64,000 bases of DNA from Candidatus Omnitrophota bacterium. Lineage in GTDB: Bacteria > Omnitrophota > Omnitrophia > Omnitrophales > Aquincolibacteriaceae. Of the stretch, positions 9,692 to 34,500 are shown in pieces; position 1 is the stretch's first letter, and each line of letters opens with the position of its first letter. A program made the translations under genes and the position numbers. The stretch is taken from NCBI GenBank assembly GCA_043821445.1, contig JBDRCT010000029.1, positions 7,317 through 71,316 on the forward strand, read 5' to 3'. The notes under the pieces are model-generated. The model was given only the letters and a program-made list of their open reading frames with translations. It made no database searches and was not told where the DNA came from.

Positions 9692-9703
9692 GGCTATCGA
9701 CTC

Positions 9704-10635: not shown

Positions 10636-10667
10636 ATGCGCTCTCTTACAGTCAAAGGAGTCATTTC

Positions 10668-10991: not shown

Positions 10992-11012
10992 TCATATTTT
11001 TCAGAGGAAAAC

Positions 11013-11255: not shown

Positions 11256-11277
11256 TCCAGTTCCAATCAAGTTCGAA

Positions 11278-11320
11278 AAGGCTAAAAAGCGATCCTAAGC
11301 TTTTTGGCCTTTTCTATTTT
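11278..11320 (+). terminator. possible hairpin/attenuator between rpmA and obg
   Basis: GGCTAAAAAGC…GCTTTTTGGCC imperfect inverted repeat followed by a T-rich tract. Confidence 0.3.
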
Positions 11321-11331
11321 TAAGGACTTTT

Positions 11332-14664: not shown

Positions 14665-14679
14665 AAGCGGTCTTTCCGC

Positions 14680-15258
14680 ATGAAGATTGGTATTTTGGGA
14701 GGGACTTTCGATCCTATCCACCTCGGGCATTTGCAGCTTGCTCAAAATGCCCAGGCCCAATTCTCGCTCGATAAAGTCATTTTCGTTCCAGCCTATCAGC
14801 CTCCCCATAAACTGGAATTTCTTTCTCGCACACCTGCTGCAGACCGTTACGAAATGGTCCGTTTGGCCCTCGAAGGCGAGCCTTTCCTTGAATCTTCAGA
14901 TTGCGAACTCGTGAGAAAGGGCATTTCTTATACCTGTGACACCCTCGATGAATTTGAAAAAAAATATCCTAACAGCACATTTTTTTTGATCCTCGGGAAA
15001 GACACATTCGAAGGGATCGATGCCTGGTATCGTGCTGCTGAACTTAAGAAAAAGGTCCGTTTCCTGGTGGCGGAACGGGGTACTGGTGAAATTTCTGCGC
15101 CCGAAGGCGCCCGTATCGAACGAATCCAAATGCCTTTATGTCCGATCTCTGCCTCCGGGATCCGTGAGGCTATCCAACAGGGAAGGAATGTGGACGATCA
15201 TGTGCCTCCGAAAGTTCTTCAATTGATTCACGCACGTGCGCTTTACCGGAAAAACTAG
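14680..15258 (+). CDS. nadD: nicotinate-nucleotide adenylyltransferase
   Basis: GGTFDPIH(L)GH nucleotidyltransferase motif. Confidence 0.85.
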   Translation: MKIGILGGTFDPIHLGHLQLAQNAQAQFSLDKVIFVPAYQPPHKLEFLSRTPAADRYEMVRLALEGEPFLESSDCELVRKGISYTCDTLDEFEKKYPNSTFFLILGKDTFEGIDAWYRAAELKKKVRFLVAERGTGEISAPEGARIERIQMPLCPISASGIREAIQQGRNVDDHVPPKVLQLIHARALYRKN

Positions 15259-15261
15259 AAC

Positions 15262-16497
15262 ATGAACACAACTTTACCTTGGGCTATTTTGGGAGTGCTC
15301 TTCATAGTTTCCTTTTTCTTTTCCGCGTCCGAAACAGCTCTTTTTTCACTTTCTAAGCTCGATAAACGCAAGCTTAAAGAGCAATACCCACATCTTTCAA
15401 AATGGATCTTTGAACAATTACAAACACCACGCAAGACGCTCGGCACGGTTCTGATCGGCAATTTGGCGGTGAACACATTGGCAACATCGACAGTCACGCT
15501 TGTAGCTCTCAATCTTTTTGGGAATGCGCGGCTCGGCATAGTTTTGGCAGCATTGACTGTTTTCCTGATCGTTTTTTGTGAGATGCTTCCCAAGATTCTG
15601 GCGGTCCGGTCGCGTGTCAAAATGGCCTTATTCGTATCTCTGCCGCTTAAGTTTTTTGCGATGTTGTTCGCTCCCTTTAGGCTCTTGATGCGTTTTATAA
15701 CGGATCGTATTCTCTCCTTTCTTGTTCACGAAAAAATCGATCAGTCAGACATGATCTCTGAAAAAGAACTCAAGGTGCTTGTGAAGATTGGAGAGGAAGA
15801 AGGGGTTTTGGGAGGACAGGAGCGGCATATGATCCAAAAGCTTTTAGAGCTCGGGGAACGACCGGTCAAGGATATCATGACGCCGCGAACGGATCTTATT
15901 GGTTTGGATATCGAGGAGCCTTCGGAGAAGCATGAGGAACTTATTCGAAAATTTCACTTCACGCGTTTGCCTGTTTTTCAAGGCTCGATCGATCATATTC
16001 TTGGAGTTGTTGAATCGCAGAACTATCTTTTGCAAGAACCGCTTCCCGATGTGAAGCAAGTGATGCAGGAGCCGCTTTTTGTTCCGGAAAGCAAACGGAT
16101 CGATGATCTTCTGGAAACATTCCGAAGTAAGAATGAACGTTTTGCGGTCTGCGTGGATGAGTTTGGCGGGACGGCCGGGGTGGTGACACAGGAGGATATT
16201 CTTGAGGAGATTTTCGGGGAGTTTTACGATGAATATGCCAAGATCGAGCATCCTATCAGGCGTTTAGGCGAGGATCTTTACCTGGTGGATGGAAAAGTCA
16301 GCCTTGTGGAGTTCAACGATGTTCTTTCCTCGCATCTGATCGCAGAAGAGGCGACGACGCTCGGGGGTTATCTTTTCGAAAAAATGGGAGTGGTTCCTGT
16401 CAAAGGTGCAGTTTTTAATACAGAACAATTCGATTTTGTGATCCAGGATATGATCCGCCAGCGTATCCACCAGGTCATGGTCAGGAGGAAGCCATGA
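15262..16497 (+). CDS. CorC/HlyC-family transporter (DUF21-CBS pair-CorC_HlyC)
   Basis: 411 aa. N-terminal DUF21 TM region, two CBS domains and a C-terminal transporter-associated domain. Confidence 0.8.
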   Translation: MNTTLPWAILGVLFIVSFFFSASETALFSLSKLDKRKLKEQYPHLSKWIFEQLQTPRKTLGTVLIGNLAVNTLATSTVTLVALNLFGNARLGIVLAALTVFLIVFCEMLPKILAVRSRVKMALFVSLPLKFFAMLFAPFRLLMRFITDRILSFLVHEKIDQSDMISEKELKVLVKIGEEEGVLGGQERHMIQKLLELGERPVKDIMTPRTDLIGLDIEEPSEKHEELIRKFHFTRLPVFQGSIDHILGVVESQNYLLQEPLPDVKQVMQEPLFVPESKRIDDLLETFRSKNERFAVCVDEFGGTAGVVTQEDILEEIFGEFYDEYAKIEHPIRRLGEDLYLVDGKVSLVEFNDVLSSHLIAEEATTLGGYLFEKMGVVPVKGAVFNTEQFDFVIQDMIRQRIHQVMVRRKP

Positions 16498-17447
16498 TAG
16501 GTCTCCTGACCCTGTTTTTTCTATCTCTGGTGGCTTCGGCGTTTTTTTCAGGGGCTGAGATGGCTTTTGTTTCGGCGAACAAGCTGAAGCTTCACGAAAT
16601 AGCGGATGCCGGAGATAAAAAAGCCAGGTTCATTATGCATCTCCAGCAGCATCCCAATTATTTCCTGACCGCCATTCTCATAGGGAATAATGCGGCAAAC
16701 GTTACGGCGATCTCGATCGCGACGTGCATTTTCAAGGAATATTTAGGATGGAACAGCGAATGGGCCGTGATGCTGGTGATCGCACCAGTATTGATCATTT
16801 TTACGGAAATGGTTCCCAAGGATTACGGTCGCTTAAATGCGATTTCTTTTTTGCAGGGGAAGATCTTTTGGCTTAAGGGCCTCAAGGCGGTCCTGTACGG
16901 ACCGATCATCCTGTTCTTCAAGATGCTGAATTTTTTCTGGCCCTCTTTTCAACAGGGTGTTGTCCGGGATATCTTTGTGAATGAGGAGGAATTTCGCTCA
17001 CTCATCGATGAAAGTACCCAGAGAGGCATTGTAGGTCCGCAGGAAGAGAAACTGATCCACACCATCCTCGACTTTGAACGGATCCAGGTCTCCTCGGTGA
17101 TGATTCCAGCGGGGAAAGTGCCGATGGTGGATATTCACAGCAAGATCGAGGATGTCAAACAAATCGCACGTGAGACCCACGCTCGCATGATGCTCGTTTA
17201 CGAGGAAATACCGTCCATTGTGATGGGGATGGTCTATGTCTTCGATATCCTATGGGAGGAAGAGAACGCTCAGGGGCTCCATGATTTTCTCAGGGCCCCC
17301 ATTTTTATCTCAGAGGACACTTCCTTGGAGAAAGCTTTCCTGACACTCCAGAAAAAACGCCAATCCTATGCCGTTGTGACTGATCGAGCCGGGGACATTA
17401 AAGGGGTTGTCCCGATCGAGCGGCTTCTTATGTTCGAGAAGCACTGA
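16494..17447 (+). CDS. DUF21-CBS domain membrane protein (paralog lacking CorC_HlyC tail)
   Basis: 317 aa. The start overlaps the upstream stop. Same N-terminal architecture as the preceding gene. Confidence 0.75.
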   Translation: MIGLLTLFFLSLVASAFFSGAEMAFVSANKLKLHEIADAGDKKARFIMHLQQHPNYFLTAILIGNNAANVTAISIATCIFKEYLGWNSEWAVMLVIAPVLIIFTEMVPKDYGRLNAISFLQGKIFWLKGLKAVLYGPIILFFKMLNFFWPSFQQGVVRDIFVNEEEFRSLIDESTQRGIVGPQEEKLIHTILDFERIQVSSVMIPAGKVPMVDIHSKIEDVKQIARETHARMMLVYEEIPSIVMGMVYVFDILWEEENAQGLHDFLRAPIFISEDTSLEKAFLTLQKKRQSYAVVTDRAGDIKGVVPIERLLMFEKH

Positions 17448-17646
17448 ACGACGCGCGATTTTCTCCGTCCGATAAACTCTTCATTCCAATAGATTCTAAT
17501 AAAACAGTTCCTGTTTTTTTTGCTCTTCCTACCGTTTTTCTCCGGAGCATTTTGATCTCTTCTAGTGCGACGCCATTACTATAAAGCTTTACTAAGTGAG
17601 GCCGTTACATTGATATCGGAAGATTTAACTCGAGGAGGCAGACTTT

Positions 17647-18747
17647 TTGAGAATTATTGCTATCGCGAACCAAAAAGGCGGGTGTGGAAAGACCACAACC
17701 AGCATCAATTTTTCGGCGTGTCTGAATTTTCTTCAAAAAAAAGTTCTCGTGATCGATTTGGACCCGCAGGGGCATTCCACGATCGGGTTGGGGGTCAAGA
17801 CGCAGAAGGGAATACGGACCCTTTATGATCTACTAAGTCCGCTTCAACACGTGGCGCCTCCTCTCTCGCAAGTCATACGGAGCTTGAATCAGGATTTTGA
17901 TCTCATTCCCTGCAATGCCAGCCTGAATGCCCTTGAGGAAGAATTCGGGTTTGTGCCTAATTATCATCTCAAACTCCGGGATCTTCTGACCCGGATCGGC
18001 GAAGACCAGCGTCATTATGACTTTGTGGTTCTGGATTGCCCCCCGAATCTCGGGGTTCTCACCTGGAATGCCCTCAGTGCGGTTGATGAAGTCGTGGTTC
18101 CGGTTGAGCCGTCATTTTTTTCACTTCACGGGCTTGCGAAAATTTCGGAAACTTTCCAAGTTGTGAATCGGAGCCGGGAAACGCCCCTTGCCGTTCATGC
18201 GCTTTTGACGCTTTTCAATTCCCAAGTGAATTTTTCTCATGAGATCTATGATGAAGTGAAAGCTCATTTTCAGGACCGACTTTTTACGACGATTATCCAT
18301 GAACATGTAAGTCTGAAGGAAGCGGCGGCTGCGGGACAAAGTATTGTCCAATATGCGCCCCAATCGACGGCTTTTCAGGATTATTTGAATCTTGCAGTCG
18401 AATATTTGGAGCGGGATTGGAACCGGAGGCTTCCAGAGAAAGAACTCGGATGGGAGCAGGTTTTTAAAAATCATTTCGGGCCACGTTTGATCTCGGATGG
18501 GATCCTTTTTCAGTTCTCGAGTAAAACAGCATCCTCGGTAGAAATCGCCGGAGATTTTAATCGTTGGATTCCTGAGCCGCTCATTCGCCGTGATCAGGAC
18601 GGACTTTGGCAGAAGGTTATTTCGGTGGAGCTCAAGACGTTTCGCTACAAGTTCATTGTGGACGGAGAGTGGCAGGTGGATCCCCATCAGCCCGCGCAGA
18701 AAGAAAATGCCTATGGCGGCATCGATTCTTATATGGAATTTGCCTGA
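17647..18747 (+). CDS. ParA/MinD-family ATPase fused to a C-terminal AMPK-beta/CBM48-like glycogen-binding domain
   Basis: TTG start with a GGAGG RBS. Deviant Walker A KGGCGKTT. The C-terminal 85 aa (…GDFNRW…FRYKFIVDGEWQVDPHQP…GGIDSYMEF) align with the AMPK beta GBD (…GSFNNW…HQYKFFVDGQWTHDP…). Confidence 0.8.
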   Translation: MRIIAIANQKGGCGKTTTSINFSACLNFLQKKVLVIDLDPQGHSTIGLGVKTQKGIRTLYDLLSPLQHVAPPLSQVIRSLNQDFDLIPCNASLNALEEEFGFVPNYHLKLRDLLTRIGEDQRHYDFVVLDCPPNLGVLTWNALSAVDEVVVPVEPSFFSLHGLAKISETFQVVNRSRETPLAVHALLTLFNSQVNFSHEIYDEVKAHFQDRLFTTIIHEHVSLKEAAAAGQSIVQYAPQSTAFQDYLNLAVEYLERDWNRRLPEKELGWEQVFKNHFGPRLISDGILFQFSSKTASSVEIAGDFNRWIPEPLIRRDQDGLWQKVISVELKTFRYKFIVDGEWQVDPHQPAQKENAYGGIDSYMEFA

Positions 18748-18749
18748 TC

Positions 18750-19556
18750 ATGGATGATCCCAAAAAGCTCGTTCGTGGATTGAAAGACATTTCGCCTCTC
18801 TTTGGCGCGGTTTCCGAAGACGTCCCGGTCCGTCGTTCTCCCGAAGTTCAGGTGCTGGGTGTTTCGAGCCCCGACTGCGATGGCGATTCGCTTCTCCTGA
18901 ACACATTCTTTGCATTGCAGATCGCATCCCCGGAGAGAGCCTGTTCTCTTCTCAGCATTCTATCGCGCAAGGCCAGGGTTCCTTCGGGGTCCGGGGATAG
19001 TCTGTCAGAATCGTTTGGGGACCATCTCGTGCGGTATTGTCTTTATTGGGATGAGCTTCATGATCTTGTTAGCGGTCCTTCTTTGCCTCGATCCGAGAGA
19101 GTGCTCCGGAGCCGGGATATTTTCCTGGATTTCGAGTATCGTCACCTACTTCAGTTTGAGAAGGTGATTTCTTTGCTAGATAAATGGGTTCTTTTGTTGA
19201 GACCCACGGCTGAATCCTTGACGGAAGGTTACAAAATGATGAAAGTGGGGCTTGCACTTAACCCGCAACTCGAATTTTACGTCACCTTGTCCGGAAGCGC
19301 GGAGGAGGCTAAAGGGGTGGTAGTCTTCGATCAGTTTTCAAGCTTTGTGTTCACACATCTTGATGCTCATCTTGGATGGTTAGGGTGGATGGATCTTGCG
19401 GATCCTGCGCGACATTTTTCTGCGGCTCTTCACACGGAGCCGTTGAAATATCAGCATTGGAATGCAAAGCCCAGCCTCCAGAAGTACCTGCTGGCTGATT
19501 GGATCGAATCTTTGGAAAGAAAAACGCAGGTTTGTGCTCCGGCCGAGGTGCAATGA
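18750..19556 (+). CDS. MinD/FlhG-like protein with degenerate P-loop (putative pseudo-ATPase)
   Basis: VLGVSSPDCDGDS replaces the Walker A. It retains the LRPTAESLTEGYKMMK segment, homologous to the FlhG/MinD TPEPTSLTDAYALIK. The ORF upstream of ATG 18750 overlaps the previous gene. Confidence 0.5.
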   Translation: MDDPKKLVRGLKDISPLFGAVSEDVPVRRSPEVQVLGVSSPDCDGDSLLLNTFFALQIASPERACSLLSILSRKARVPSGSGDSLSESFGDHLVRYCLYWDELHDLVSGPSLPRSERVLRSRDIFLDFEYRHLLQFEKVISLLDKWVLLLRPTAESLTEGYKMMKVGLALNPQLEFYVTLSGSAEEAKGVVVFDQFSSFVFTHLDAHLGWLGWMDLADPARHFSAALHTEPLKYQHWNAKPSLQKYLLADWIESLERKTQVCAPAEVQ

Positions 19557-20092
19557 TGATCACGATCCAAGAGCGCGTTACCCGGCAGGAGATCTTCCAG
19601 CTGATCCGCCTTTCGATCCAGGAACTTCACGCGGACAAAATAATCCTCGAGGATATGAATGGCACCCCGTTTCTTTTTAAGAGCAAGGATGCACAAGTTT
19701 GGGCGCGTATTTTTTACCGGTCGATGCGGGATTATTCCGTGGAAGAATTACAGCAGGAAATCAAAAAGCTTTGGGTGCTGATGCCTAACGATGCGATACT
19801 CTATCTTTTCTATCCAGAATTGGACCGGCAACAGATCTTCAAGATGAACGGCTTCAGTGATCGCTTGAGCTTTTTTGAGTACGGCGGGCTTTTGAGTGCA
19901 GATCGGGAAAAAGTTGGTGCCCGAATATGCAAATGGATTCCCTCTTCCATGCCTGCCCTCAGCCTGGCCCAAGATGGGGAGATGCTCTCCCGCGTTCATC
20001 TTTCCCCAGGGAGTTTTTTGCAAAGCGCTCGCCTGACATCACAGGAAATCGCAGGTCTCGCCGAATTGTCTTTGGCTTTGCATCGGGTCTGA
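19553..20092 (+). CDS. hypothetical protein, third gene of the ParA cluster
   Basis: 179 aa. ATG 19553 overlaps the upstream TGA (ATGA). No recognisable domain. Confidence 0.4.
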   Translation: MMITIQERVTRQEIFQLIRLSIQELHADKIILEDMNGTPFLFKSKDAQVWARIFYRSMRDYSVEELQQEIKKLWVLMPNDAILYLFYPELDRQQIFKMNGFSDRLSFFEYGGLLSADREKVGARICKWIPSSMPALSLAQDGEMLSRVHLSPGSFLQSARLTSQEIAGLAELSLALHRV

Positions 20093-20427
20093 AACAGCTC
20101 TTCCGGATAATCTCGCGATCTTTTGGGACATTGACGGGCGCTAAGGAACGTGCGTTTTTTTTCAATACGATAGCCGTTGACGTTTTTTGTCCTTTGCGGG
20201 AGAATGCCCCCGAGGTTTGGGATTTTGGGCACGGGCATGCGCTTTAGCAGGTTCAAAAAGAGAGAAGTAAGGAGCCGCCTTATTTTCTCTCAAGAAATAG
20301 TTTCTTCCGTTTTGAAAAAGTGAGGCGCGACGGTCCGGAAGCCCAGATCGCCCAAAGAGCTCGCTTGGATTTCGTGACAGCCTTTTTGATCGCCAATGTT
20401 CGTTTCAACAGGCCGGAAGGGGACATC

Positions 20428-21861
20428 ATGATGACTAAAGTTTGTCGGAGGCTTTCTCTCATTTCCACTCTTTTTTTTCTTCTTCTTTTTTGCGGAAAAG
20501 ACGCTTCCGCCCAGGAAGATCTCAAGAACGAAATCGGGACTGTCCACAGTGAAAGCCGGCTTACAGAAAAGATATCCAAAACCGCCGCCAAGTCGGAAGA
20601 AAAAGAGCGGACGGACAAATACAAGACGGGGATCACCTATGCGGACGTCCTGAAGGAACCCGACAATATCGACCTCAATTTCCGTTACGCGCAGGAGCAG
20701 ATCGTCAAGGGCAGACTTCTAGGCGCCGCGGCGACTTTGGAGCGTATTCTTCTTGTCAATCCGAACCTTGCGGATGTGCGGCTCCTTTACGGAGTCGTGC
20801 TTTACCGGCTGGACAATTTGAATGAGGCTCAGAGGGAGCTGGACGCCCTCAAGGCCGTGCCCCTGCCGGCCAGGATCAAACAGGACGTCAGCCTTTACCT
20901 AAAGAAGATCCAGTCGCGAAAAAGGAGCACCCACGTTTCCGTCCGGGAGTCCCTGGGATGGGGCTATGACACGAACCGTAACGCGTCGCCCTCTTCAAAG
21001 TTTCAGTGGTTTAACGAGGTCCCGCTCGCCACTACCGGCAACAACGTCAGGCGGCCCGACACGAATTTCCTGAACGTTACGACCGTGGACGTGAGCCATA
21101 ATCTGGGGTTCCAGGCCGGTCACTCCGTTTTCGGGTCTTTTACTTATTTCCTGCAGGAACAAACCAACGTGAATTCTCTGGATCTTAGTTCTTTTCAGTA
21201 TGAATTTGGCGGGACCTTCAAGAACAAACACGTCGATTTTACGCCGTCTTTTTATGCCAGCAACGTTCTCCTTTCCAGGGAAGGTTTTTTAAGGACCCAA
21301 GGGGGGAAATTCCTTTTCGAGCGTAACGTCACGAAAAGGCTGGGCGCGTTCTATAGTTTCGGAATCGAACGCCAGGATTACACGAACATTTTCGAGGACA
21401 ACAATGCCTACAACCGCAAAGGGCCCCAGATTGATAATTTTTTGGGGATCAACTATATGCTGCTCCCGACGATGCGATGGACCACGAGCGTCGGTTATTC
21501 CCATAAATTCGCCAAACAGGACTACTACGCTTACGACCACGTTACTCTGAATAACAGCCACACGTGGATCTTGCCGAAGGGGCAGTTTTTGATCAATGCG
21601 ATCAATGCCTATTTCGATAATTACGACGCGCCGGACTTTGCCGTCTCCCCCCGCAACCGCCATGACAAGATCATGAGGTACCGGGTGACGTACGGCGTGC
21701 CGCTCACGACGCTTTTGATCGGAAAGATCCTGCCCGGGCCGCTCAAGGACACGGTCTTTACTTTTTCCTACGAATATTACAGGTCTCTTTCGAATATCAC
21801 GAATTACTCGTATAACGACAGCAAACTCCAGGCGCTTCTCAACTTCCGATGGGAGTACTAG
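20428..21861 (+). CDS. outer-membrane protein: N-terminal TPR-like region + C-terminal beta-barrel (Slam/DUF560-like topology)
   Basis: GGAAGGGGA RBS, then a signal peptide and a TPR-like segment. The C-terminal roughly 350 aa is rich in alternating aromatic/Gly/Asn/Tyr residues and ends …LLNFRWEY, a beta-barrel C-terminal aromatic signature. Confidence 0.55.
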   Translation: MMTKVCRRLSLISTLFFLLLFCGKDASAQEDLKNEIGTVHSESRLTEKISKTAAKSEEKERTDKYKTGITYADVLKEPDNIDLNFRYAQEQIVKGRLLGAAATLERILLVNPNLADVRLLYGVVLYRLDNLNEAQRELDALKAVPLPARIKQDVSLYLKKIQSRKRSTHVSVRESLGWGYDTNRNASPSSKFQWFNEVPLATTGNNVRRPDTNFLNVTTVDVSHNLGFQAGHSVFGSFTYFLQEQTNVNSLDLSSFQYEFGGTFKNKHVDFTPSFYASNVLLSREGFLRTQGGKFLFERNVTKRLGAFYSFGIERQDYTNIFEDNNAYNRKGPQIDNFLGINYMLLPTMRWTTSVGYSHKFAKQDYYAYDHVTLNNSHTWILPKGQFLINAINAYFDNYDAPDFAVSPRNRHDKIMRYRVTYGVPLTTLLIGKILPGPLKDTVFTFSYEYYRSLSNITNYSYNDSKLQALLNFRWEY

Positions 21862-21932
21862 ACCGTGTCAATTTTGAAATTAAGGGTACACGGTAGAGTA
21901 CTGTTTACCCTGCTAAAATTAAATGGAGAACA

Positions 21933-23279
21933 GTGCTAGCCATGAAAAAAACACCATCGTTCTTTGGTATTTTTTTGATGCTTGTTTTCAACGCGTCCGT
22001 TTCTGCCCAAGTCCCGCTTGCGGGGTCGGGAGCCGTTCCGGCGCAGGCGGGTCTTGAGCAGGTCGGGGTCGTGGCCGCCGCCTTCGGCAAGGTCGAGCTT
22101 AAAACGCCCGGCCAAGTCGGCCGCGTCGCCGAAAGCGGGAAGCCAGTCTTCATGGGCGATGAAGTAAAGACCGATGCGAAGGGGCGTTTGCAGATCCTGC
22201 TTCTTGACGAGACGGTTTTTACCGTTGGACCCGATAGCGCGATCGTGATCGATGATTTTGTTTATGACCCCGCGACCGATGAGGGGAAAGTAAGGGCAAG
22301 CGTTACCAAGGGTGTTTTCCGTTATGTTTCCGGGAGGATCGCGGCCAAAAAACCCAATAATGTCGCGATCAAACTCCCTTCGGCCATGATTGGTATCCGA
22401 GGAACGATCGTCGTGGGGCAAGTGGCGGCGCTTACCTCCCTTGCGATACTTATGGGCCCAGGCGAAAATAACGACGCCAGGGCCACAGTAGGAAGTTTTG
22501 TCGTCCAGGGCGAAGGGGCTCATGCAGGGGTGGAGCGAACTGTCAACCGGACGGGCTTCGGCGTTCAGGTGGACCAGACCGGAACGCTTTCCGCCACGTA
22601 CAAAGTTCCCGATGCTGACGTGAGCCGGTTGACTTCAGTTCTGGCCCCGGCGCAAGGATCGACCGAGGACTCCGGGCTGGGCGGCGGGGATTCCGCGACC
22701 AATCTTTCGGGCGAAGGGGGGGTGATCACGGAAGAAAATTCGAATATTTCCGGAGGCGTTACTGAGATTTCCAACAGCCTCGGCGATGATTCAACAAAGG
22801 GCGCCCAAGACACGGCCTCGGGCGCCACCAGCGTCGCGGACGGTATTTCAAAAATAGTGGATCTGGCGCGCATCACGACAGGGATTTTCTATTACTCCGC
22901 CTATGGATCATATCCGGGCGTTGGAGGCTACGCATCCGGACAATTGGAAATTAATTTTGGCACAAGAACGATTGGCAGCGGAAATTCCAATCTTTACGTC
23001 ACCGACGGCACCAACTGGGACGAGACATCGAGCTTCAGCGGCGGCGCAAAGTCTTTTGACCAGGCGGTTGGCGGGGGGCCTAACGCGGTTTACGATTGGA
23101 GCGGCACACCCGGCGACAACGGCGGCACTTTTACGACACTTCAGGTTACGCTTTCCAATGTCGGCGGAGAGGTCGCCCATCATGCAACGGTAGATTATAG
23201 CTACTCACAGGGCGGTACGGGTCCGATTAGTGGTAGCGGTAGCGCCACCGGAGACCGTTATGCGGGGTCCGCCCCCTGA
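21933..23279 (+). CDS. secreted FecR-domain protein with Gly/Ser/Thr-rich C-terminal region (paralog 1)
   Basis: Signal peptide. FecR-like core GDEVKTDAKGRLQILLLDETVFTVGPDSAIVIDDF…IGIRGTIVV. Very GC-rich. Confidence 0.6.
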   Translation: MLAMKKTPSFFGIFLMLVFNASVSAQVPLAGSGAVPAQAGLEQVGVVAAAFGKVELKTPGQVGRVAESGKPVFMGDEVKTDAKGRLQILLLDETVFTVGPDSAIVIDDFVYDPATDEGKVRASVTKGVFRYVSGRIAAKKPNNVAIKLPSAMIGIRGTIVVGQVAALTSLAILMGPGENNDARATVGSFVVQGEGAHAGVERTVNRTGFGVQVDQTGTLSATYKVPDADVSRLTSVLAPAQGSTEDSGLGGGDSATNLSGEGGVITEENSNISGGVTEISNSLGDDSTKGAQDTASGATSVADGISKIVDLARITTGIFYYSAYGSYPGVGGYASGQLEINFGTRTIGSGNSNLYVTDGTNWDETSSFSGGAKSFDQAVGGGPNAVYDWSGTPGDNGGTFTTLQVTLSNVGGEVAHHATVDYSYSQGGTGPISGSGSATGDRYAGSAP

Positions 23280-23369
23280 ACGGGACATTTCCATTCTGAA
23301 ACGGAATCAAAGAAAAGGGGACAGGCAATCAATGAATGCCTGTCCCCTTTACCTTTAAGGAAAATTCTC

Positions 23370-24227
23370 ATGAAAAAAAATATTCTCTGGATTTCCGTTA
23401 CTTTGATCGTTGCACTGATCGGGGCGTGGGGTGTTCTGTCCGCGCAGCCCGCGGGGCCGGCGCAGGCGGGGGTGGCGGGCGCCGTGAGGGGAGAGGTAAA
23501 GGCGGCGCCGGAAAGCGCGGCGGAGCGGCCTCTTAAAAGCGGTGACAAGATTTTTATGGGTGACCGGATCGAAACGGGCAAGGATGGCCAGATGCAGGTC
23601 CTTTTGCTCGATGAGACCGTTTTCACGCTTGGGCCTTCGAGCGCGACGGTCGTGGATGAATTCGTTTACGATCCGGCAACCGATGACGGCAAGGTGCGGG
23701 CCAGTATGCTGAAGGGGATCTTCCGTATCGTCACCGGAAGTGTGGCGCACAAAAAACCGGAGAACATGGAGGTCGCGCTCCCGGCCGGGGTCATTGGCTT
23801 TCGTGGCACGATCGTCGGCGGCATCATTGAAGGTTTGCGGTCGATGGTCGCGCTTCTGGGCCCCGAGCAGGCGGCCGGGCAGATCTACGTGAGCAATACG
23901 GTGAATGGCAAAACGGTCGGCGTGGATATCACGCAAGGCGGATACGGCACGGTCATAGGTGGCGCCGGCATTGCGCCGGTCCCCGCGTTCCACATTCCCG
24001 AGTCAGACCTTAACCGGATTGCGAACGCGGTAGGGCAGTCCATGACTCCCGGCGCGGCGGCCGAAACGACCGGGGAAGACATGACGACGGCCTCGAAAGC
24101 GAGAACGGGCGCTGGTGCGGAGGCTGCGGGAGAGCTCTTCAAGACCACGGATAAGATGGATCAGTATTCGCAGCAGGCCGCTCAGGATAAGGGGAGCAGT
24201 TCGTCGTCAGGCCATAGTTCCAGTTAA
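23370..24227 (+). CDS. secreted FecR-domain protein (paralog 2)
   Basis: Clear paralog of the 21933 protein (…GDRIETGKDGQMQVLLLDETVFTLGPSSATVVDEFVYDPATDDGKVRASM…FRGTIVGG). Confidence 0.6.
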   Translation: MKKNILWISVTLIVALIGAWGVLSAQPAGPAQAGVAGAVRGEVKAAPESAAERPLKSGDKIFMGDRIETGKDGQMQVLLLDETVFTLGPSSATVVDEFVYDPATDDGKVRASMLKGIFRIVTGSVAHKKPENMEVALPAGVIGFRGTIVGGIIEGLRSMVALLGPEQAAGQIYVSNTVNGKTVGVDITQGGYGTVIGGAGIAPVPAFHIPESDLNRIANAVGQSMTPGAAAETTGEDMTTASKARTGAGAEAAGELFKTTDKMDQYSQQAAQDKGSSSSSGHSSS

Positions 24228-26037
24228 AAAGCAGAAATAAAGGCGCCCCTTTATTTTGGAGGTCGCGATGGTGACACCGTCCCAGGATGGGCCCGGCGGA
24301 TCGGCGCGGCAGGATTGAACGCGGGATGCGTAGAGATCGTAAAGTGGCCCCAGTTCAATGTCCGGCAACTTGATCTTCCTGCAGTTTTCAAGCGATTTTT
24401 CGACTTCTTCCCAACGTCCGCTCCGGTAAGAGGCGAGCATCCGTTCTTGTTCCGTTTTGAGTTCCCGGAAGACCGCGCGGTCGTTTAAATCCTTATCTCC
24501 CAAAAGTGCGAAGATATTGACCGGGGTCTTCTTTCCCTTCACACGGATCAGGTCCACTTCCAGGGCCGCATTTCCGGCACTCCTGCCATTGTATTGGCCC
24601 CCAGGATGGTGGTCGTGCCATAATTTTTTGAGGCGCCTTCCAGCCGCGAGGCGAAATTGACGTCATCGCCCAGGACCGTGTAATCGAACCGATGCTCGGA
24701 CCCCATGTTGCCGACGCAAGCCTCGCCGGTATTGATGCCGACACCGCTCTTGATCTCCAGGAACGGTTTGCCTCGCTCCTCAGCCTCCCGCTTCCGGAGT
24801 GCGTTCCACTCCCGCAGGAACTGCTGCATCTCGATTGCCGCGAGACACGCGTGTTTTGCATGGTCCTTGTCCCCGAGCGGAGCGTTCCAGAACGCCATGA
24901 TGCAGTCCCCGATGTGTTTATCGATCGTGCCGCCGTGCTTCAGGATGATATCGGTCATGGGCGTCATGTAATGGTTCATGAATTTTGTGAGTTCCTGGGC
25001 GGTCATGGTCTCGGAAAGGCTCGTGAAACTCCGGATATCCGAAAAAAGAAAGGTCATGGTCCTGGTCTCGCCGCCGAGCTTGAGCTGTTTCGGATCCTTG
25101 ACCGGTTTTGCCACCAAGGCCGGGGAAAGATAACGGCTGAAGGCGCCGCGGATCTGGCTTTTCTCGCACTCGGTACGCAAAAAATTCAGGAATGAGGACA
25201 CAAGATAGATGAGGAAGATCACAAGCGATGGGAACACGGGGTCCGTGAGCAGATGGTGCCGATCAAAGGCGTACCACGAAAGTCCCATGGCGAGCGTCAC
25301 GGCCGTGATGCCGACCGCTGCGCAGAGAACGGCGCCCGCCCGCGGCAAAAGCAGGATCAAAATGAGCCCCAGCAGGACCAGGTAACTGAATTCGGCGCCT
25401 TCGGCCCAGTCCGGCCGTTCGAGGAAGTTTTGAAGAAGGATCTGTTCGGCGATCCCCGCATGGATCTTCACCCCCGGAGCGCGCGGATTGAGCGGCGTTG
25501 AACGGAGATCTTTAAGGCCTGCCGCGCTTGTCCCGATAAAAAGCAGGGTCCCTTCCAGACTCGCAAGGTCAAAATCGTCCGAGAGAACCTTCCAGGCCGG
25601 GAGGTAACGTTCGGGCTGATCGCCCGTATCATAAAGCCAGACCCTGCCGTGTTTGTCCGTGGGAATCGTGAGTTTGCCGATGCGGACCTTCACGATGCCC
25701 GTCCTTTCTCCGAAGGCCCGTTCGCCGCTGCCGCCGCTGAGCTTGATCTTGTAGAGGGTCGCCCCTTGTGCGACCCGCAGGGCTTCCGCTGCCAGGGAAG
25801 GATAAATGGTTTCCCGCAGGTTGAAAAAGAGGGGGAGACGGCGGATGACGTTATCCCGGTCATCCGGCATCGCGATGCTTCCGTTGCCGGCCGCGGCTTT
25901 CTCCAAAACGGGCAGATCGACAACAGCGCCCTCATAAGAAGGGCGAAGGTGGTCGATGGCCTTATCGCCCGCGATGCCGCCGTTCCCGTTCGAAGCCGCG
26001 ATTGCCGTTTCTCGATCAGTCCCGAAGACGGAGCTTG
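24207..26037 (-). pseudogene. CHASE2-domain class III adenylate/guanylate cyclase, 5'-truncated and frameshifted near the 3' end
   Basis: The 452-aa ORF (24548-25906) carries the distal part of CHASE2, TM helices and the cyclase core (FLFSDIRSFTS…GDCIMAFWNAP). The cyclase C-terminus (DLIRVKGKKTPVNIFALLG) continues in another frame in the ORF at 24207-24557. The frame is open upstream to 26037 with no start codon and no N-terminal TM or CHASE2 N-half. Confidence 0.65.
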
Positions 26038-26140
26038 GTCAAAATTTCAATGATCAAGATCATACAAAAAAATCCAACTTAGAACGGTGCCGGGTAAACG
26101 AGGGCCAAACTAATTTAAAAGTGTTAAGAGCACGTCAAGA

Positions 26141-27432
26141 TGTCCGCTTTCCGTAGCACGTGATTTGTCCGCTTTTGGTTTTTGGTTATTTTGAGCTCCT
26201 GGGTTTCTTCGGGTTTGAATTTGGCAATTATGTGCGGTCCGTAGGTGACGGTGATTGATTCATCGAGATGCTCATGGATCGTAACTTTGCATTTAGCAAA
26301 GGAGATTCTGAATTTCGAAGGTTGAATCTAAAGGATCCTGTTGTTCCAGTGTACGGTGTTGTCGCATCCGACGGAACGTTGCTCTTTGATTGAGAAGACG
26401 AGGTCAAGGTTCTTGCCCCGGTGAGGGGTAAAGGCCGTTCCTTTTTGTTCCGGGGGTTTTACGAAAGATGCCCGGTACTGTGGCAGAAAGGTCTCAAGGA
26501 TGTAGCGGTTGGCATCGGGAATGGTCTTGATGCCGTAGAGTTTGAGTTCATTGGGCAAACGACCCTGTCATGTTCCGAAGATCCTTTCGGATCGGCCCCG
26601 TGCTTGAGGGGAATAGGCAGGAATGGGCTCGATGCCGAGCTCGTAGAGAGCTTGTCCGATCTGAGTGAGATTAGAGAGATCGACTTTGGGGCTAGACGGC
26701 AGGGTTCGGAAGAAGTGACTGGCGCGATCCGAATAAAGGAGGCAAAAGACCCCCTTGGACCGGACCACATGGCGTAGAGCGAGCATGCATTCCCTGGAGT
26801 TTTCCTGGGGAACGAGCTTGGCGTAATAGATGTCACCGGTGGCATCATCAGCGACCACGATGAGATCTTGGTGGCCTGGAAGGTTCGGGATCCATGAATG
26901 CGTGGAACCGTCGATATGGAGCATCATTCCCGGGATGGGTTTTCTGGGCCGGCGTTGGTGGTGTTTTGATTTTTTGGAGCGGACCTCGACGTACCCAGCG
27001 CCTTGGAGCAGGTTTTTAACCCAGGTGTATTTATAACCGATGCCGTGCTTGGCGAGTTGTTCATAAAAGTGCCATGTGTTCCAATCTTTGTATTGGTCGC
27101 GGTAGAGCTGAAGAACGCGGCTTCTGACGGGTTCTGGCGCCCTTTTAGGGCTCGGACGCCTGCTTCTGCGGTCGAGAATGCTTTCGTAGCCGCCCAGTTC
27201 GACGGATTCTTTCCAGCGGCGAATGGTGCGTTCGTCAACTTTCAAGATTTCAGCAACCTCTCTCCAGGTTAAGGATTTGTGATAGGCCCTGGTGAAGACA
27301 TCTTGTATTTTCATGATCCGCTCCCATTGAGCCGGGGGATAGAGCATAATCAGCCTCCTGTTCTGAGCTTGAAAAGCTGATTATACGGTCCGGCATAAAA
27401 GCGGACATTTCACGTGCTACGGAAAGCAGACA
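26141..27432 (-). mobile_element. IS element (~1.29 kb) with 36-bp imperfect terminal inverted repeats; ISNCY/IS481-like DDE transposase
   Basis: IRL at 26141-26176 (TGTCCGCTTTCCGTAGCACGTGATTTGTCCGCTTTT) against the reverse complement of IRR at 27397-27432: 33 of 36 positions match. One transposase gene lies between them. Confidence 0.7.
26328..27347 (-). pseudogene. DDE transposase (HTH + rve-like core, HIDGSTHSW motif) interrupted by an in-frame TGA at 26568-26570
   Basis: The ORFs 26568-27347 and 26328-26558 are in the same frame, separated only by the TGA. The joined product reads …RGRSERIFGT*QGRLPNELKLYGIK…, like uninterrupted ISNCY-type transposases (…ER.FGTLQDRL.KELRL.GI…). Confidence 0.65.
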
Positions 27433-27539: not shown

Positions 27540-28076
27540 ATGGCCAATAATAAAAAGAAGGAAGATATCCAGGAGAAGATTCTTGACGTTGACGCGAGCA
27601 TGCAGGGCACGATTTCGTTCAAGGATCCCGTGAATTTGCGCATCAACGGAAGTTTTGAGGGCAAGCTTGACACGCGCGGCAATCTCACGATCGGCGAGAA
27701 CGCCAAGGTCAGCGCGAATATTCACGGCGACAATATCGTCATAGCCGGAAAAGTTTCCGGAGATGTCATGGCGACTCAAAGCATTTCCATTCTTGGAACG
27801 GCAACTCTCAAAGGGAACCTTACCACGCCACGCTTGAGCATCGGAGACGGCGCAATCCTTCAAGGACTTGTGAATATGCAAGGCCTGAGCGTTTCAGATG
27901 GATCGGATGTTTTTTTGACTTTAAAGGATGTGGCGCAGTATTTGGAGGTGGAGGCTCGCATTATTGAAGAGTGGGCACATTCCAAAAAGATCCCGGCCCG
28001 TTTTGATAATGGTCACTGGATCTTTACCAAGACCGAGGTGGATCAATGGGTCCAGCGGGAGAGGGCTTCGGTCTAA
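27540..28076 (+). CDS. bactofilin (DUF583) domain fused to a C-terminal excisionase/MerR-type helix-turn-helix DNA-binding domain
   Basis: Residues ~30-125 have a bactofilin beta-helix repeat pattern (NLTIGENAKVSANIHGDNIVIAGKVSGDV…LKGNLTTPRLSIGDGAILQG). The C-terminus LTLKDVAQYLEVEARIIEEWAHSKKIPARFDNGHWIFTKTEVDQWV matches the HTH_17/excisionase signature. Confidence 0.7.
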   Translation: MANNKKKEDIQEKILDVDASMQGTISFKDPVNLRINGSFEGKLDTRGNLTIGENAKVSANIHGDNIVIAGKVSGDVMATQSISILGTATLKGNLTTPRLSIGDGAILQGLVNMQGLSVSDGSDVFLTLKDVAQYLEVEARIIEEWAHSKKIPARFDNGHWIFTKTEVDQWVQRERASV

Positions 28077-28155: not shown

Positions 28156-28464
28156 ATGAATAACATGCTGACCTTCGACGAGGTGAAAAACTTTCTCGGG
28201 GTCGAACAACAAGTGATCGAGCAGTTCATCCGGGATGAAGTTTTGCACGCCTACAAGATCGGCGGCGTGTATATTCGCTTCCGGAAAGAAGAGGTTCTCG
28301 GTCTTAAGTATGATGTCCTGCTTAAGAAAAAAAAAGGCGCGACTTCCGGTTCCTTCGGGCAGCGGTTGTGGGATTTTTGGCGATTCAATAATTTTTATAT
28401 CATCTCCGTTCTGATCATCGCGGCATTGGCGTATTGGTTTTTGCACACCACGGTGTCTTCTTAG
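28156..28464 (+). CDS. membrane-anchored helix-turn-helix protein (N-terminal excisionase-type HTH, C-terminal TM helix)
   Basis: LTFDEVKNFLGVEQQVIEQFIRDEVLHAYKIGGVYIRFRKEEV is paralogous to the HTH of the preceding gene. C-terminal hydrophobic helix FYIISVLIIAALAYWFL. Confidence 0.55.
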   Translation: MNNMLTFDEVKNFLGVEQQVIEQFIRDEVLHAYKIGGVYIRFRKEEVLGLKYDVLLKKKKGATSGSFGQRLWDFWRFNNFYIISVLIIAALAYWFLHTTVSS

Positions 28465-31585: not shown

Positions 31586-34500
31586 TTGAGTCTAAAGTTT
31601 TTTAAGGACTTCATTCTGGCTGTCAAAATGCGTCTCGGTGCTTTTTGGGCCCGGAAGAAGATCGCCGAGGAACAGCCTCTTCGTGCCGAGCTTTTCAGTA
31701 TTGATCAGTTTAAGGCGCATGCGAAAGGCCTGGCCCAAAGACATCGTGTCAGTTACAAAAAGGGGCAGAACCGGCTCTTGCTTCGGTTGAGAAAAAATGA
31801 ACAGGTGCTTTCGGAGATCCACGAATTACTTAACGAGACGGGAAAACCCAAACGAAGGATCGCGCCGGCCGGAGAATGGCTTCTCGATAATTATTATCTC
31901 ATTGAAGAACAAATAAGGCTCGCCCAGAAATACCTCCCGGGAAAGTACATCCGCGAACTTCCCCATCTTCTTCGAGGACCGCTTGCCGGTTATCCGCGTG
32001 TTTATGAGCTTGCCATGGAGCTTGTCTCCCACGGCGACGGACGGCTGGATAGCCAGGGGCTTGCGGAGTTTGTCACGGCATATCAAACCGTCAGCCACTT
32101 GAAACTCGGCGAACTGTGGGCCATCCCCATTATGTTAAGGCTGGCGCTTATCGAAAACTTGAGGCGCGTATCCTCCCGGTTGATTGTGGCACAAATGGAA
32201 AGAGATAAAGCGGATCATTGGGCGACGCGGATCCTGGGAGTTTCGGCCAAAGATACCGATGGGGTGATCTTTGAAATCGCAGCGATGGCCAAAGGGAACC
32301 TGCCGCTTTCCGACGCTTTTGTCGCGGAATTCACACGGCGTTTGCATGGTCAAAGCCAAGCGCTCACTCTTCCTTTTGCTTGGTTGGAAAAGAAACTTGC
32401 GGAGCAAGGAGAGACCCTCGACAGAATCATCCGGGCAACCAGCCAAAAACAGGCGGCCGATCAGGTCTCGATCGCGAACACGATTGGGAGTCTGCGTCTT
32501 CTGGAAGTTACCAATTGGCATGATTTTGTCGAAGCCTTGAGCGTTGTCGAAAAGGTTTTGAGCCAGGATCCATCGGGAGATTACAGCCGGATGTCTTTCG
32601 AGACCCGCGATCGCTATCGGCATGTCGTGGAGAAGCTTTCTTTGAGAAGCAAGACCGGCGAAGAGAAGATCGCGGCGCGCGCGATCCAGATCGCAAAGAG
32701 GGCCGAAGGGGAGAAAGGTCCTGGCCACGTCACGACGCATGTAGGTTTTTATCTTCTCGATAAAGGATTGGAGCTTTTTTGTGGCGAACTGGGCTTTCGC
32801 TTACCTCTCCGGCAGTATCTTCAGGCGAAAAAAAATTTTTGGCCGGCTGTCCTGTATTTTTCTTCCATTACTGTGATGACCCTTACCTTGACCGCAGGTA
32901 TTTTGTTTTGGATGAAGCCAGGGGGGAGCTCGAATTGGCCGTGGTTTCTTTTATTCGGGATGCTCCTTCTGTTCGCGATAAGCCAGACGGCGGTGTCACT
33001 TGTCAACTGGTTTTCCGCGATGCTCGTGAGCCCCCAAGACCTTCCCCGGATGGATTTTTCAGAAGGAATTCCCGCTTACGCCCATACGCTGGTCGTGATC
33101 CCTTGCATGCTCAGTAACGCGCGCATGGTTACCGCACTTTTCGAAGGGCTAGAGGTCCACTATCTTGCGAATATCGACGCGAATACGGATTTTGCCCTCT
33201 TAACGGATTTTTGCGATGCCCCGCAGGAGACGATGCCTGAGGATGCGGCCTTGTTGGAGCAAGTTACGGACGGGATTGAGCAGCTGAATCACAAATATCG
33301 ACGGCGGAAAGATCACGTTTTCTATCTTCTTCACAGGCCGCGCCGGTGGAATGAAAAAGAAAAGGTGTGGATGGGGTATGAACGCAAGCGGGGCAAACTG
33401 GCGGATCTTAATGCGTTCCTTCGCGGAAAAGGGGAAGGCCGGTTTAGCGTGATTCTCGGGGACCCGCAGAGGCTTCAGACCGTGAAATATGTCATCACGC
33501 TGGATACGGACACCCGGATGCCACGGAACGCGGCGCGGGAGCTTGTCGGGGTCATCGCGCATCCGTTGAACAAGGCGGTCTATGATGAAAAAAAACAGCG
33601 GGTCATCTCCGGATACGGGATCCTCCAGCCCCGGGTCGAATCCAGTTATCCTGGAGAAAATCCTTCTTTGTTCGTGAGAGTCTTTGGAGGCGATTCCGGG
33701 ATCGATCCTTACACCAAAGCGGTGTCCGATATTTACCAGGATCTTTTCTTCGAAGGGTCTTTTATCGGTAAAGGGCTTTATGACGTCGATGCGTTCGAAA
33801 GATCCATGGAAGGCCGTTTCCCGGAAAATCTTATCTTAAGTCATGATCTTTGGAGGGCTGTTACGCCCGCTCAGGGCTTGTGACGAATGTTCAATTCTAC
33901 GAGGAATATCCCTCGGGTTATCTTAAAGACTCAAACAGGAGATACCGTTGGATCCGCGGGGATTGGCAAATCGTTCCCTGGTTGTTCGCTTCGGTCCGCG
34001 GGTCCAGCGGCGCAAAGGCCCGAAATCCGGTTTCTTTTCTGTCTCAATGGAAGATCGTGGATAACTTAAGACGGAGTCTTGTTCCTTTTGCGACGGTTTT
34101 GCTGCTTGTGTCAGGCTGGATGTTTTTTCAGCCATCCTGGATGTGGTCGGTCTTTGTGATCGTTCTTCTTGGTTTTCCCCTCGTGCCGATATCTCTGACG
34201 GAGGCGGTGAGGAAACCCGGGGATCTGACCTTCAAGACCCATTTTGGGCTGGTGTTGTCTTCATTCAAGAAGAACGTGGTCCGGTTCTTCTTCTCGATCG
34301 CTTTTTTGCTGCACGAGGCGTTCTATTCTTTGGATGCGATCGTGCGAACTTTGTGGAGAATGTTCGTGTCGCGGAGGCATTTGCTGGAATGGCGGCCCTC
34401 CCGGGATTCGGAAGTGTCTCTGCGAAAAAATATTTTAGATTGCTACAGGAACATATTCCTGGAACCCATTGCCGCGGGGCTATTGCTGGTTTGCCCTTCG

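Follow-up and report, generated by a model that had tools for sequence, protein, structure and literature searches.

What does the cassette of three exported proteins and a nucleotide cyclase in an Omnitrophota genome encode, and is this copy of it still able to work? We analysed a 64,000-nucleotide stretch of contig JBDRCT010000029.1 from a Candidatus Omnitrophota bacterium (hereafter the window, whose numbering is used throughout) in which positions 20428 to 26037 contain four genes: a gene for an outer-membrane protein (OMP), two genes for secreted FecR-domain proteins (FecR-1 and FecR-2) and, facing them, the remnant of a gene for a CHASE2-sensor class III cyclase. The open reading frame (ORF) listing and profile searches placed all four in this interval, in agreement with an annotation made beforehand from the letters alone (the sequence-only reading), which had described three exported proteins in series on the plus strand and a convergent CHASE2 cyclase. 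Comparison with related genomes showed that the segment from approximately 20.1 to 26.04 kb is a partly deleted copy of a conserved Omnitrophota envelope module, a variant of two known themes, the type 11 secretion system (T11SS) and the pairing of FecR-domain proteins with CHASE2 receptors. We propose, with a probability of roughly 0.55, that the OMP forms a Slam-like pore that docks or exports the FecR proteins and that these act as protein co-sensors of CHASE2. The interest of the locus lies in this conserved family rather than in the dead copy in the window.

To determine how widely the arrangement is kept, one genome per species was scanned, giving 44 OMP loci that were annotated with hidden Markov models (HMMs) built from this family; counts refer to the 32 species-level OMP loci whose sequence continues for 7 kb or more downstream of the OMP gene. 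Between one and four FecR genes were present in 32/32 loci, always with a FecR gene adjacent to the OMP gene, a CHASE2 cyclase was found in 31/32 and a FecR protein bearing a C-terminal barrel in 26/32. The gene order in the contexts of OMP homologs was OMP, FecR, FecR and a convergent CHASE2 cyclase of 742–748 aa; over the module as a whole the cyclase is usually, but not always, convergent. Two forms of FecR protein recur, a long form composed of the N-terminal FecR domain (FecR-N), a disordered linker and one or more 8-strand barrels, and a short form consisting of FecR-N and the linker helix. Carriers of the module were mostly Omnitrophota, with further examples in metagenome-assembled genomes (MAGs) labelled Elusimicrobia (L044), Rhodospirillaceae (L045), Pseudomonadota (L049) and Planctomycetia (L050). 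A DEAD-box helicase gene lies directly upstream of the OMP gene in approximately 25 Omnitrophota, and the cyclase gene of at least 14 loci has genes for a GAF-SpoIIE (PP2C) phosphatase and a DUF3307 protein beside it, including loci in which the order is rearranged (L034, L047); these two proteins may be a cyclic nucleotide-responsive output of the module. One contig (CAYSSX010000004.1) carries two OMP-FecR copies, one with a cyclase (L032) and one without a cyclase within 8 kb (L039).

The association of FecR genes with CHASE2 receptors extends beyond loci with this OMP. A metagenome scan with FecR-1 returned only distant FecR-N homologs (33–49% identity) and contained no close relative or donor of FecR-1; among the distant loci with enough flanking sequence, a CHASE2 cyclase was present in 13/13 and a Slam-like OMP in none. 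Six freshwater metagenome loci (L051, L061, L097, L104, L125 and L074) combine a FecR-like gene and a CHASE2 cyclase with a secreted curlin-like-repeat protein (…N.I.I.Q.G..N… repeats, up to 700 aa) encoded between the two, a different third partner for the same pair. Because these distant loci keep FecR and CHASE2 in the absence of the OMP, FecR-N and CHASE2 appear to form an old core whose third partner varies. Published neighbourhoods are of the same kind, comprising a CHASE2 cyclase / phosphodiesterase / 'FecR OMP' / TPR-protein cluster in Campylobacterota (PMC9239204), a BiofilmReg response regulator / LysM-FecR / CHASE2 histidine kinase / DUF4136 neighbourhood in Burkholderia (PMC5192318) and the cyaD1-smc02177 pair of S. 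meliloti (PMC5498481). The linkage is mentioned in passing in these three papers, and a mechanism for it was found neither there nor elsewhere in the literature searched. Taken together, the co-occurrence in 31/32 OMP loci and 13/13 distant FecR loci and the published clusters bear out the earlier statement that FecR-like genes are recurrent neighbours of CHASE2 receptors.

The OMP, which is 100% identical to an NCBI protein named 'tetratricopeptide repeat protein', has a Sec-type signal peptide (..DASA before QE) and ends in ...RWEY. Weak TPR_19 and TPR_9 matches in Pfam cover aa 95–142 of the tetratricopeptide repeat (TPR) head. An AlphaFold2 (AF2) model of the protein (predicted local distance difference test score, pLDDT, 84.8; predicted template modelling score 0.76) contains a set of TPR helices followed by a barrel of 14 long strands, approximately 310 residues with pLDDT mostly above 90. 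In a structure comparison with the PDB the best TM-scores were to the 14-strand OmpG (TMt 0.68–0.69). When 65 members of the OMP family were compared with Pfam, 18 matched SlipAM (PF04575) at E < 0.01, 16 matched TPR_Slam (PF24575) and 19 matched DUF2860; five orthologs (P0115, P0050, P0081, P0112 and P0114) scored above the SlipAM gathering cut-off (25.9–35.8 bits against 22), and one SlipAM-matching ortholog spans positions 3–287 of the 288 in the profile. These matches agree with the Slam/DUF560-like layout that had been suggested from the sequence, and the orthology of the window OMP to its relatives (45–63% identity and the same synteny) would make it a member of the Slam/DUF560 (T11SS) family. 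No TonB-dependent-receptor, plug or STN family was matched by the OMP or its relatives in the Pfam scans. The T11SS-type 14-strand barrel with its TPR head, the lack of TonB-receptor families and the cargo-like barrel on FecR-1 together favour a role of the OMP as a pore or docking site for the FecR proteins over one as a ligand-gated transducer. The ORF is intact, and only 5 of the 104 conserved residues of the family deviate.

Both downstream proteins exceed the Pfam gathering score for FecR (PF04773; 24 bits) and are paralogs (37% identity over approximately 280 aa, E 4e-48). Direct reading of the two sequences revealed Sec-type signal peptides (..VSA and ..LSA before Q; N-termini MLAMKKTPSFFGIFLMLVFNASVSA and MKKNILWISVTLIVALIGAWGVLSA, each followed by Q) and neither a Cys lipobox nor a transmembrane segment, so the description of the two as unanchored FecR-domain paralogs holds. 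In Pfam, with E. coli FecR for comparison, neither protein matched DUF4880 (anti-sigma) or FecR_C, and none of the scanned neighbouring genes matched a sigma factor. The AF2 model of FecR-1 (pLDDT 81; 445 aa in the NCBI call, P0121) contains two folded domains, each with pLDDT above 90: FecR-N and, beyond a disordered Gly/Ser/Thr-rich linker, a C-terminal 8-strand barrel. FecR-2 has the signal peptide, FecR-N and a disordered tail ending in a conserved ..QQAAQD helix that is common to the short paralogs of relatives, and has no barrel. Of the Gly/Ser/Thr-rich tails described beforehand, the one in FecR-1 is in fact a linker that leads into a folded domain. Long and short paralogs, FecR-1 among them, have in common a conserved amphipathic helix that ends in ..AAQD and interrupts the disorder of the linker. 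Both FecR ORFs are intact, and FecR-1 deviates at 5 of the 80 conserved residues of its family.

Foldseek searches of the PDB related the fold of FecR-N to the cell-surface signalling domain (CCSSD) of PupR (6ovk, E 6e-6) and to a Bacteroidetes anti-sigma factor. Its first approximately 65 residues superpose on the anchoring domain of the adhesin MpIBP (5ix9; 62 columns, root-mean-square deviation 1.1 A, 29% identity), and the NCBIfam model retention_LapA (NF033682) was matched by 46 of 63 FecR family members and by FecR-2 itself at 2.6e-6. The NCBIfam models Lsa33 and LipL45 were matched by 57 and 52 of the same 63 proteins, respectively. All 63 members keep a Gly-Thr pair (G157-T158 in FecR-1) within the motif IG(F/I)RGT. 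On the PF04773 profile this pair lies approximately where the self-cleavage site G181-T182 of E. coli FecR maps, an estimate drawn from profile coordinates only; an hhalign comparison of the family with a single E. coli FecR sequence was uninformative on this site.

The best Foldseek matches of the FecR-1 barrel were NHBA (6cuj, probability 1.0), fHbp (2w80), TbpB (4o3z), HphA (8gmm, probability 1.0) and hemophilin (7re4, probability 0.97), and the T11SS cargo listed in the literature includes TbpB, fHbp, HphA and haemophilin homologues (PMC12282271). As judged from the models, the likeness of the barrel to T11SS cargo is a fold-level resemblance only. In all full-length proteins checked, the barrel stood behind an N-terminal FecR domain, short matches being gene fragments; the idea that it is a general secretion tag on diverse proteins was rejected, as it occurs only with FecR-N. 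Barrels can occur in tandem, up to 18 copies in one protein of 3297 aa. The giant relatives with tandem barrels are P0361 (3297 aa), P0362, P0363, P0364 and P0443, of which the scanned P0362, P0363 and P0443 start with a FecR domain, and they look like adhesins or fibres.

The fourth gene is a pseudogene. Its product matched CHASE2 at 96.5 bits (profile positions 102–254 of 257) and Guanylate_cyc at 67.6 bits, and is 60–68% identical to full-length homologs of 730–780 aa. When such homologs were aligned to the window by tblastn, residues 168–643 and 644–748 fell in two different frames, and the family HMM was correspondingly matched over positions 193–638 and 643–743 of 743. The frames are separated by a single missing base at approximately 24569 (…CCG GAA AT_ GCG GCC CTG…), and cyclase residues 1–167 (the first transmembrane segment and the first part of CHASE2) left no trace anywhere in the 64-kb window by tblastn. 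The TAA at which the homologs end is shifted out of frame by one A near 24254, which may be a second indel; as a result the reading frame of the remnant is 15 codons longer and shares 21 nt with the FecR-2 gene. Loss of about 167 N-terminal residues and the 1-nt deletion confirm the earlier view that the cyclase is inactivated. A Lys that we read as the one of adenine-specific class III enzymes lies in …TIDKHIGD…, and the enzyme was probably of the adenylate type. A palindrome, AAATAAAGG-GGCG-CCTTTATTT, separates the convergent FecR-2 and cyclase genes.

Co-variation of the parts was assessed by a mirror-tree comparison of identity matrices from 25 loci, controlled for the cyclase catalytic domain. 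The partial correlation was 0.65 between the OMP barrel and FecR-N and 0.53 between the TPR head and FecR-N, against 0.60 between the TPR head and barrel, which are halves of one protein; the OMP and FecR-N thus behave as a single evolving unit, a pattern that fits physical coupling of the two. The C-terminal barrel showed a partial correlation of about 0 with any other part. We also found that the OMP diverges rapidly: in pairs of genomes whose helicases are 93–96% identical, the cyclases are 72–93% and the OMPs 59–90% identical. In one example the helicase, cyclase and OMP are 96%, 86% and 62% identical, and several pairs (L017/L024, L016/L017, L022/L025 and others) combine helicases at 93–96% and cyclases at 84–88% with OMPs at only 59–65%. 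Rapid or mosaic divergence of this kind, seen in both the OMP and the FecR genes, typifies surface-exposed proteins or the exchange of cassettes.

In the mechanism that we favour, FecR-N would be a periplasmic protein partner and co-sensor of the CHASE2 domain, and would have to be in the periplasm to meet it. The TPR head or pore lumen of the Slam-like OMP would bind the FecR proteins, and the pore would export the long form's barrel in the way that T11SS pores handle barrel-ended cargo, so that the state of the cell surface could be relayed to cyclic AMP (cAMP) synthesis. At native loci the output could plausibly pass from cAMP to the adjacent GAF-PP2C phosphatase. Several results weigh against this proposal. 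The window OMP itself has no SlipAM match even at E <= 10, and no Slam chain was among the 50 best PDB matches to its model. Foldseek matched the FecR-1 barrel with modest E-values only (2e-3 to 0.2), and the 8-strand barrel is a frequent fold in general; the profile of the FecR-1 barrel gave nothing relevant against the PDB, Pfam contained no TbpBBD or Lipoprot_C match, and hhalign of the barrel family against the fHbp barrel gave a probability of 0.1. A profile search of the full library found the barrel on only 277 representative proteins. In five lineages (L024, L025 and L027–L029) the OMP and cyclase are kept alongside FecR proteins that all lack the barrel, which implies that the role of the OMP is not limited to barrel export. 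Finally, the co-variation of FecR-N with CHASE2 is weak (partial correlation 0.18), and joint recombination of adjacent genes can also produce the co-variation seen between the OMP and FecR-N.

Two other accounts of the module have to be weighed. One follows the FecA-FecR paradigm suggested by the sequence-only reading, in which the OMP senses a cue, its head passes the cue to a periplasmic FecR protein and the cyclase is switched without any export. The PupR-like and anti-sigma-like fold of FecR-N, the joint diversification of the OMP and FecR-N, and the retention of the OMP in lineages with only barrel-less FecR proteins are all in keeping with it, and a precedent exists in NsrA, an OMP upstream of the CHASE2 cyclase CyaK in S. 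meliloti (PMC7529298, PMC13001267). The OMP is nevertheless of the T11SS-family 14-strand type with no plug, TonB-dependent-receptor or STN match, the FecR proteins lack transmembrane and anti-sigma parts, the one to 18 cargo-like barrels of the long paralogs are left without a reason, and NsrA, at approximately 1200 aa, is probably not of the same family as the OMP. We regard this account as unlikely, though deserving of some weight; what survives of the analogy is coupling between the OMP and FecR-N, which is plausible given their partial correlations, and what does not is a TonB-type receptor acting on an anchored anti-sigma regulator, with the cargo-like barrel a further departure from it. 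Alternatively, the OMP and FecR proteins could be a plain secretion or adhesin pair, the OMP exporting FecR proteins as surface adhesins with the cyclase merely a habitual neighbour. Most family members match LipL45 and Lsa33, which in Leptospira carry the annotation of surface adhesins. The giant forms with tandem barrels would suit such a role, and close relatives differ far more in their OMP and FecR proteins than in their cyclases, a pattern expected of surface proteins. On the other hand, the linkage of FecR to CHASE2 is kept in all 13 of the distant OMP-less loci and also where CHASE2 has a different output, for example a histidine kinase (PMC5192318). This persistence argues for a direct relationship between FecR and CHASE2 and renders a simple adhesin pair improbable.

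The T11SS pairs (Slam1-TbpB/fHbp, HrpB-HrpC, HsmA/HphA) resemble the module in having a TPR-bearing 14-strand OMP, which in the module is predicted to be of the PF04575 type, with a cargo-like gene immediately downstream. The T11SS OMP is described as a proteobacterial protein with a periplasmic TPR domain of approximately 140 aa and a 14-strand DUF560 barrel (PMC8406197, PMC12282271), and the predicted architecture of FecR-1, with its Sec signal, N-terminal domain, disordered region and C-terminal 8-strand barrel, would parallel that of T11SS cargo (PMC12282271). In contrast to those systems, the module lies outside the Proteobacteria and is known here from genes and models, its barrel has no detectable sequence similarity to TbpBBD or Lipoprot_C, the N-terminal domain is FecR-like (the term FecR is absent from the main text of the T11SS cargo survey), and barrel-less paralogs are constant companions, as is a CHASE2 cyclase. 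The module has in common with FecA-FecR and PupB-PupR a FecR domain (PF04773), folded like the PupR CCSSD and encoded beside an OMP gene, and a Gly-Thr pair at a similar profile position; it differs in having no TonB-dependent transducer, anti-sigma domain, transmembrane segment or extracytoplasmic function sigma factor, and in that its output is a nucleotide cyclase. The published FecR-CHASE2 clusters likewise place a secreted FecR-domain protein beside a CHASE2 receptor, in Campylobacterota with a TPR protein as well (PMC9239204, PMC5192318, PMC5498481), whereas in the present module a Slam/T11SS-type OMP takes the third place and cargo-like barrels are attached to the FecR protein. NsrA-CyaK is alike in that an OMP gene beside a CHASE2 cyclase is needed to perceive an external (protein) signal (PMC7529298, PMC13001267); NsrA has its barrel in residues 600–1200, compared with a whole OMP of 477 aa here, and on this size and layout it was rejected as a homolog of the OMP.

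A further parallel is with the adhesins LapA and MpIBP. LapA is anchored within its TolC-like pore by a retention module (bioRxiv 10.1101/198937), and the start of FecR-N, which resembles this retention module and the MpIBP anchor, likewise precedes a linker and then as many as 18 repeat modules. The route differs, being Sec and a Slam-like pore here rather than a type 1 secretion system with a TolC-like pore, and no LapG or LapD genes were seen. A LapA-like retention topology for FecR-N is a conjecture by analogy. Carried further, it would make the long FecR protein a tether threaded through the pore, with FecR-N in the periplasm, the linker across the OMP barrel and the 8-strand barrel or barrels (up to 18 in the giants) outside. 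FecR-N would then dock on the OMP and contact CHASE2, surface binding, pulling or cleavage could be passed directly to the cAMP cyclase, and the short paralog might serve as a periplasmic competitor or adaptor. Such a tether would accommodate at once a periplasmic FecR-N, a pore engaging the FecR proteins and an exported barrel. We consider this arrangement speculative and rather unlikely; if true, it would represent one-protein signalling across the outer membrane and would give CHASE2 receptors a protein ligand.

The ligand recognised by CHASE2 domains has been stated to be unknown (PMC5192318), and the near-obligate FecR-CHASE2 pairing points to a directly testable protein partner for them. 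Culturable bacteria with related FecR-CHASE2 clusters include Campylobacterota (Arcobacter or Sulfurospirillum), Burkholderia, P. aeruginosa PAO1, where a FecR-domain protein is paired with a CHASE2 histidine kinase (PA4035/PA4036), and S. meliloti (cyaD1-smc02177). If the favoured mechanism is true, T11SS-like machinery would extend beyond the Proteobacteria and would have a first link to second-messenger signalling rather than to nutrient capture or adhesion.

The copy in the window cannot signal, as its cyclase is dead and the downstream partners are absent, and its interest is mainly evolutionary, as a probably foreign, half-deleted extra copy in decay beside a dead insertion sequence (IS). 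Synteny with the closest relatives breaks at its left edge. One related locus (L132) is collinear with positions 7653–20092 of the window (82.5% nucleotide identity, blastn) and then stops exactly at the stop codon of the gene preceding the OMP gene, continuing instead with CT398, MraZ and STAS genes and division and cell wall (dcw) genes that have no homolog in the window. A second (L131) is collinear from approximately 7.65 kb to 19294 (77% nucleotide identity), near the end of its contig; it belongs to the same MAG as L022, which has a native module at the canonical helicase-adjacent site. In this MAG the housekeeping block is 77% identical at the nucleotide level and ParA is 90% identical to the window, and the window cyclase shares only 60% identity with the native cyclase of L022 and no more than 68% with any; where relatives have neighbours conserved to a similar degree, their cyclases are 72–93% identical. 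No DEAD helicase, GAF-SpoIIE or DUF3307 gene, nor any remnant of the canonical neighbours, was detected in the 64-kb window. Divergence of the OMP (62% identity to the native copy of a close relative) was dropped as an argument for foreign origin, as the OMPs of close genomes also differ by 35–40%.

Base composition sets the segment apart as well. The GC content of 22–26 kb is 0.56–0.61, against a window mean of 0.507 (s.d. 0.03, 1-kb windows), so the segment is indeed richer, although the 60–65% against 40–50% given in the sequence-only reading was an overstatement. By overall GC the rich segment excludes the OMP gene (0.512), the amino-acid composition of which is AT-biased; GC content at third codon positions (GC3) brings it in, with values of 0.676 for the OMP, 0.616 for FecR-1, 0.719 for FecR-2 and 0.741 for the cyclase against a mean of 0.577 ± 0.055. 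The OMP, FecR-2 and cyclase have the three highest GC3 values among 39 window genes, and the module exceeds the rest of the window by 0.11–0.12. At 27 related loci the module minus its flanks gave 0.002 ± 0.026, and the excess is therefore specific to the window copy. Taken with the synteny break at 20092/20093, the lack of canonical neighbours and the 60% cyclase identity, the GC3 excess indicates that the copy is probably foreign or translocated, which upholds the horizontal acquisition proposed earlier. It is probably a translocated or horizontally acquired extra copy from which the cyclase end and everything beyond were deleted; the OMP and FecR genes are not visibly degraded.

The IS that had been noted after the module was confirmed by its terminal inverted repeats and by an ISNCY transposase (NF033594; 221 and 55 bits on two ORF pieces) that lies in one frame apart from two in-frame stops and has no frameshifts. 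No target-site duplication was found (flanks ..GTCAAGA and ATTCATT..). A dead IS beside the module points to the same foreign or translocated origin. What weighs against this history is that breaks in composition and synteny beside an IS could come from a chimeric contig. The window derives from a MAG, both breaks coincide with the module edges, an IS is a classic site of mis-joining and this one lacks a target-site duplication; the contig might thus be chimeric at approximately 20.09 kb and 26.04–27.4 kb, with the truncation and indels reflecting mis-joins or errors. The left junction has no repeat, however, and a 100-bp stretch separates the truncation point from the end of the IS, so that the two do not coincide. 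Other long genes in the window, of up to 2174 aa, are uninterrupted, making a general indel-error problem unlikely, and the two nonsense changes in the transposase are not assembly-type errors. In addition, an orphan second OMP-FecR copy that has no cyclase exists in another genome (L039). An assembly artefact is on balance quite unlikely, and we retain the reading of a translocated or acquired copy.

Coordinates of the module, its parts and neighbouring features (window numbering unless a locus is named)
Feature	Position	Strand	Remarks
ParA/MinD-type ATPase with C-terminal glycogen-binding module	17647-18747		AMPK1_CBM / CBM48
Left boundary and upstream intergenic region	20093..20427		synteny with closest relatives ends at 20092
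OMP, predicted Slam/DUF560 (T11SS) family	20428..21861	+	477 aa; signal peptide, TPR head, 14-strand barrel
OMP TPR helices	20638-20922		aa 71-165 (AF2)
OMP barrel	20929-21855		aa 168-476 (AF2)
FecR-1, long secreted FecR-domain protein	21933..23279	+	448 aa; Pfam FecR 32.7 bits
FecR-1 N domain	22050-22652		aa 40-240 (AF2)
FecR-1 G157-T158	22401-22406		invariant Gly-Thr
FecR-1 linker	22662-22826		aa 244-298
FecR-1 C-terminal domain	22830-23276		aa 300-448; strands aa 318-444 (AF2)
FecR-2, short paralog	23370..24227	+	285 aa; Pfam FecR 32.2 bits
Palindrome	24230-24260		
CHASE2 / class III cyclase pseudogene	24255..26037	-	CHASE2 and Guanylate_cyc matches, tblastn; convergent to FecR genes
Cyclase, homolog residues 168-643	25981-24569	-	frame -1
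Cyclase, homolog residues 644-748	24569-24255	-	frame -3
AT-rich spacer between cyclase truncation point and IS	26041..26140		100 bp; GC drop seen there
Decayed ISNCY-family insertion sequence	26141..27432	-	36-nt terminal inverted repeats; transposase NF033594
IS inverted repeats	26141-26176 and 27397-27432		36 nt each, 92% complementary
Transposase region	27347-26141		
Transposase in-frame stops	26568-26570 and ~26328-26330		TGA and TAG
Bactofilin with C-terminal HTH_17	27540-28076		DNA-binding domain
Small protein after bactofilin-HTH_17	28156-28464		N-terminal HTH_17, hydrophobic C-terminal stretch
GH94-containing protein	33850-40374		2174 aa
GAF-SpoIIE/DUF3307 beside cyclase (related loci)	L001 18177-20183; L003 17276-19306; L005 17719-19718		also at least 11 other loci

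The module is flanked upstream by plus-strand housekeeping genes (proA-like, nadD-like, two CNNM/CorC genes and ParA-CBM48) and downstream by plus-strand bactofilin-HTH, acpS and ydjC genes. A scan for promoters and terminators gave no signal above chance. Exact-sequence look-ups of FecR-2, the OMP (P0001) and the bactofilin returned no record. Several neighbouring genes have unusual domain arrangements. The ParA-CBM48 fusion in the upstream flank is kept in many Omnitrophota at 57–91% identity and may be a positioning ATPase for polysaccharide granules. Downstream, the bactofilin is fused to an HTH_17 domain and is followed by a small protein with the same domain at its N-terminus. Further along, the 2174-aa protein combines GH94 supersandwich and catalytic domains with a glucoamylase-like domain and resembles a cyclic beta-1,2-glucan synthase or phosphorylase; the GC content there is mildly raised, at 0.54–0.56.

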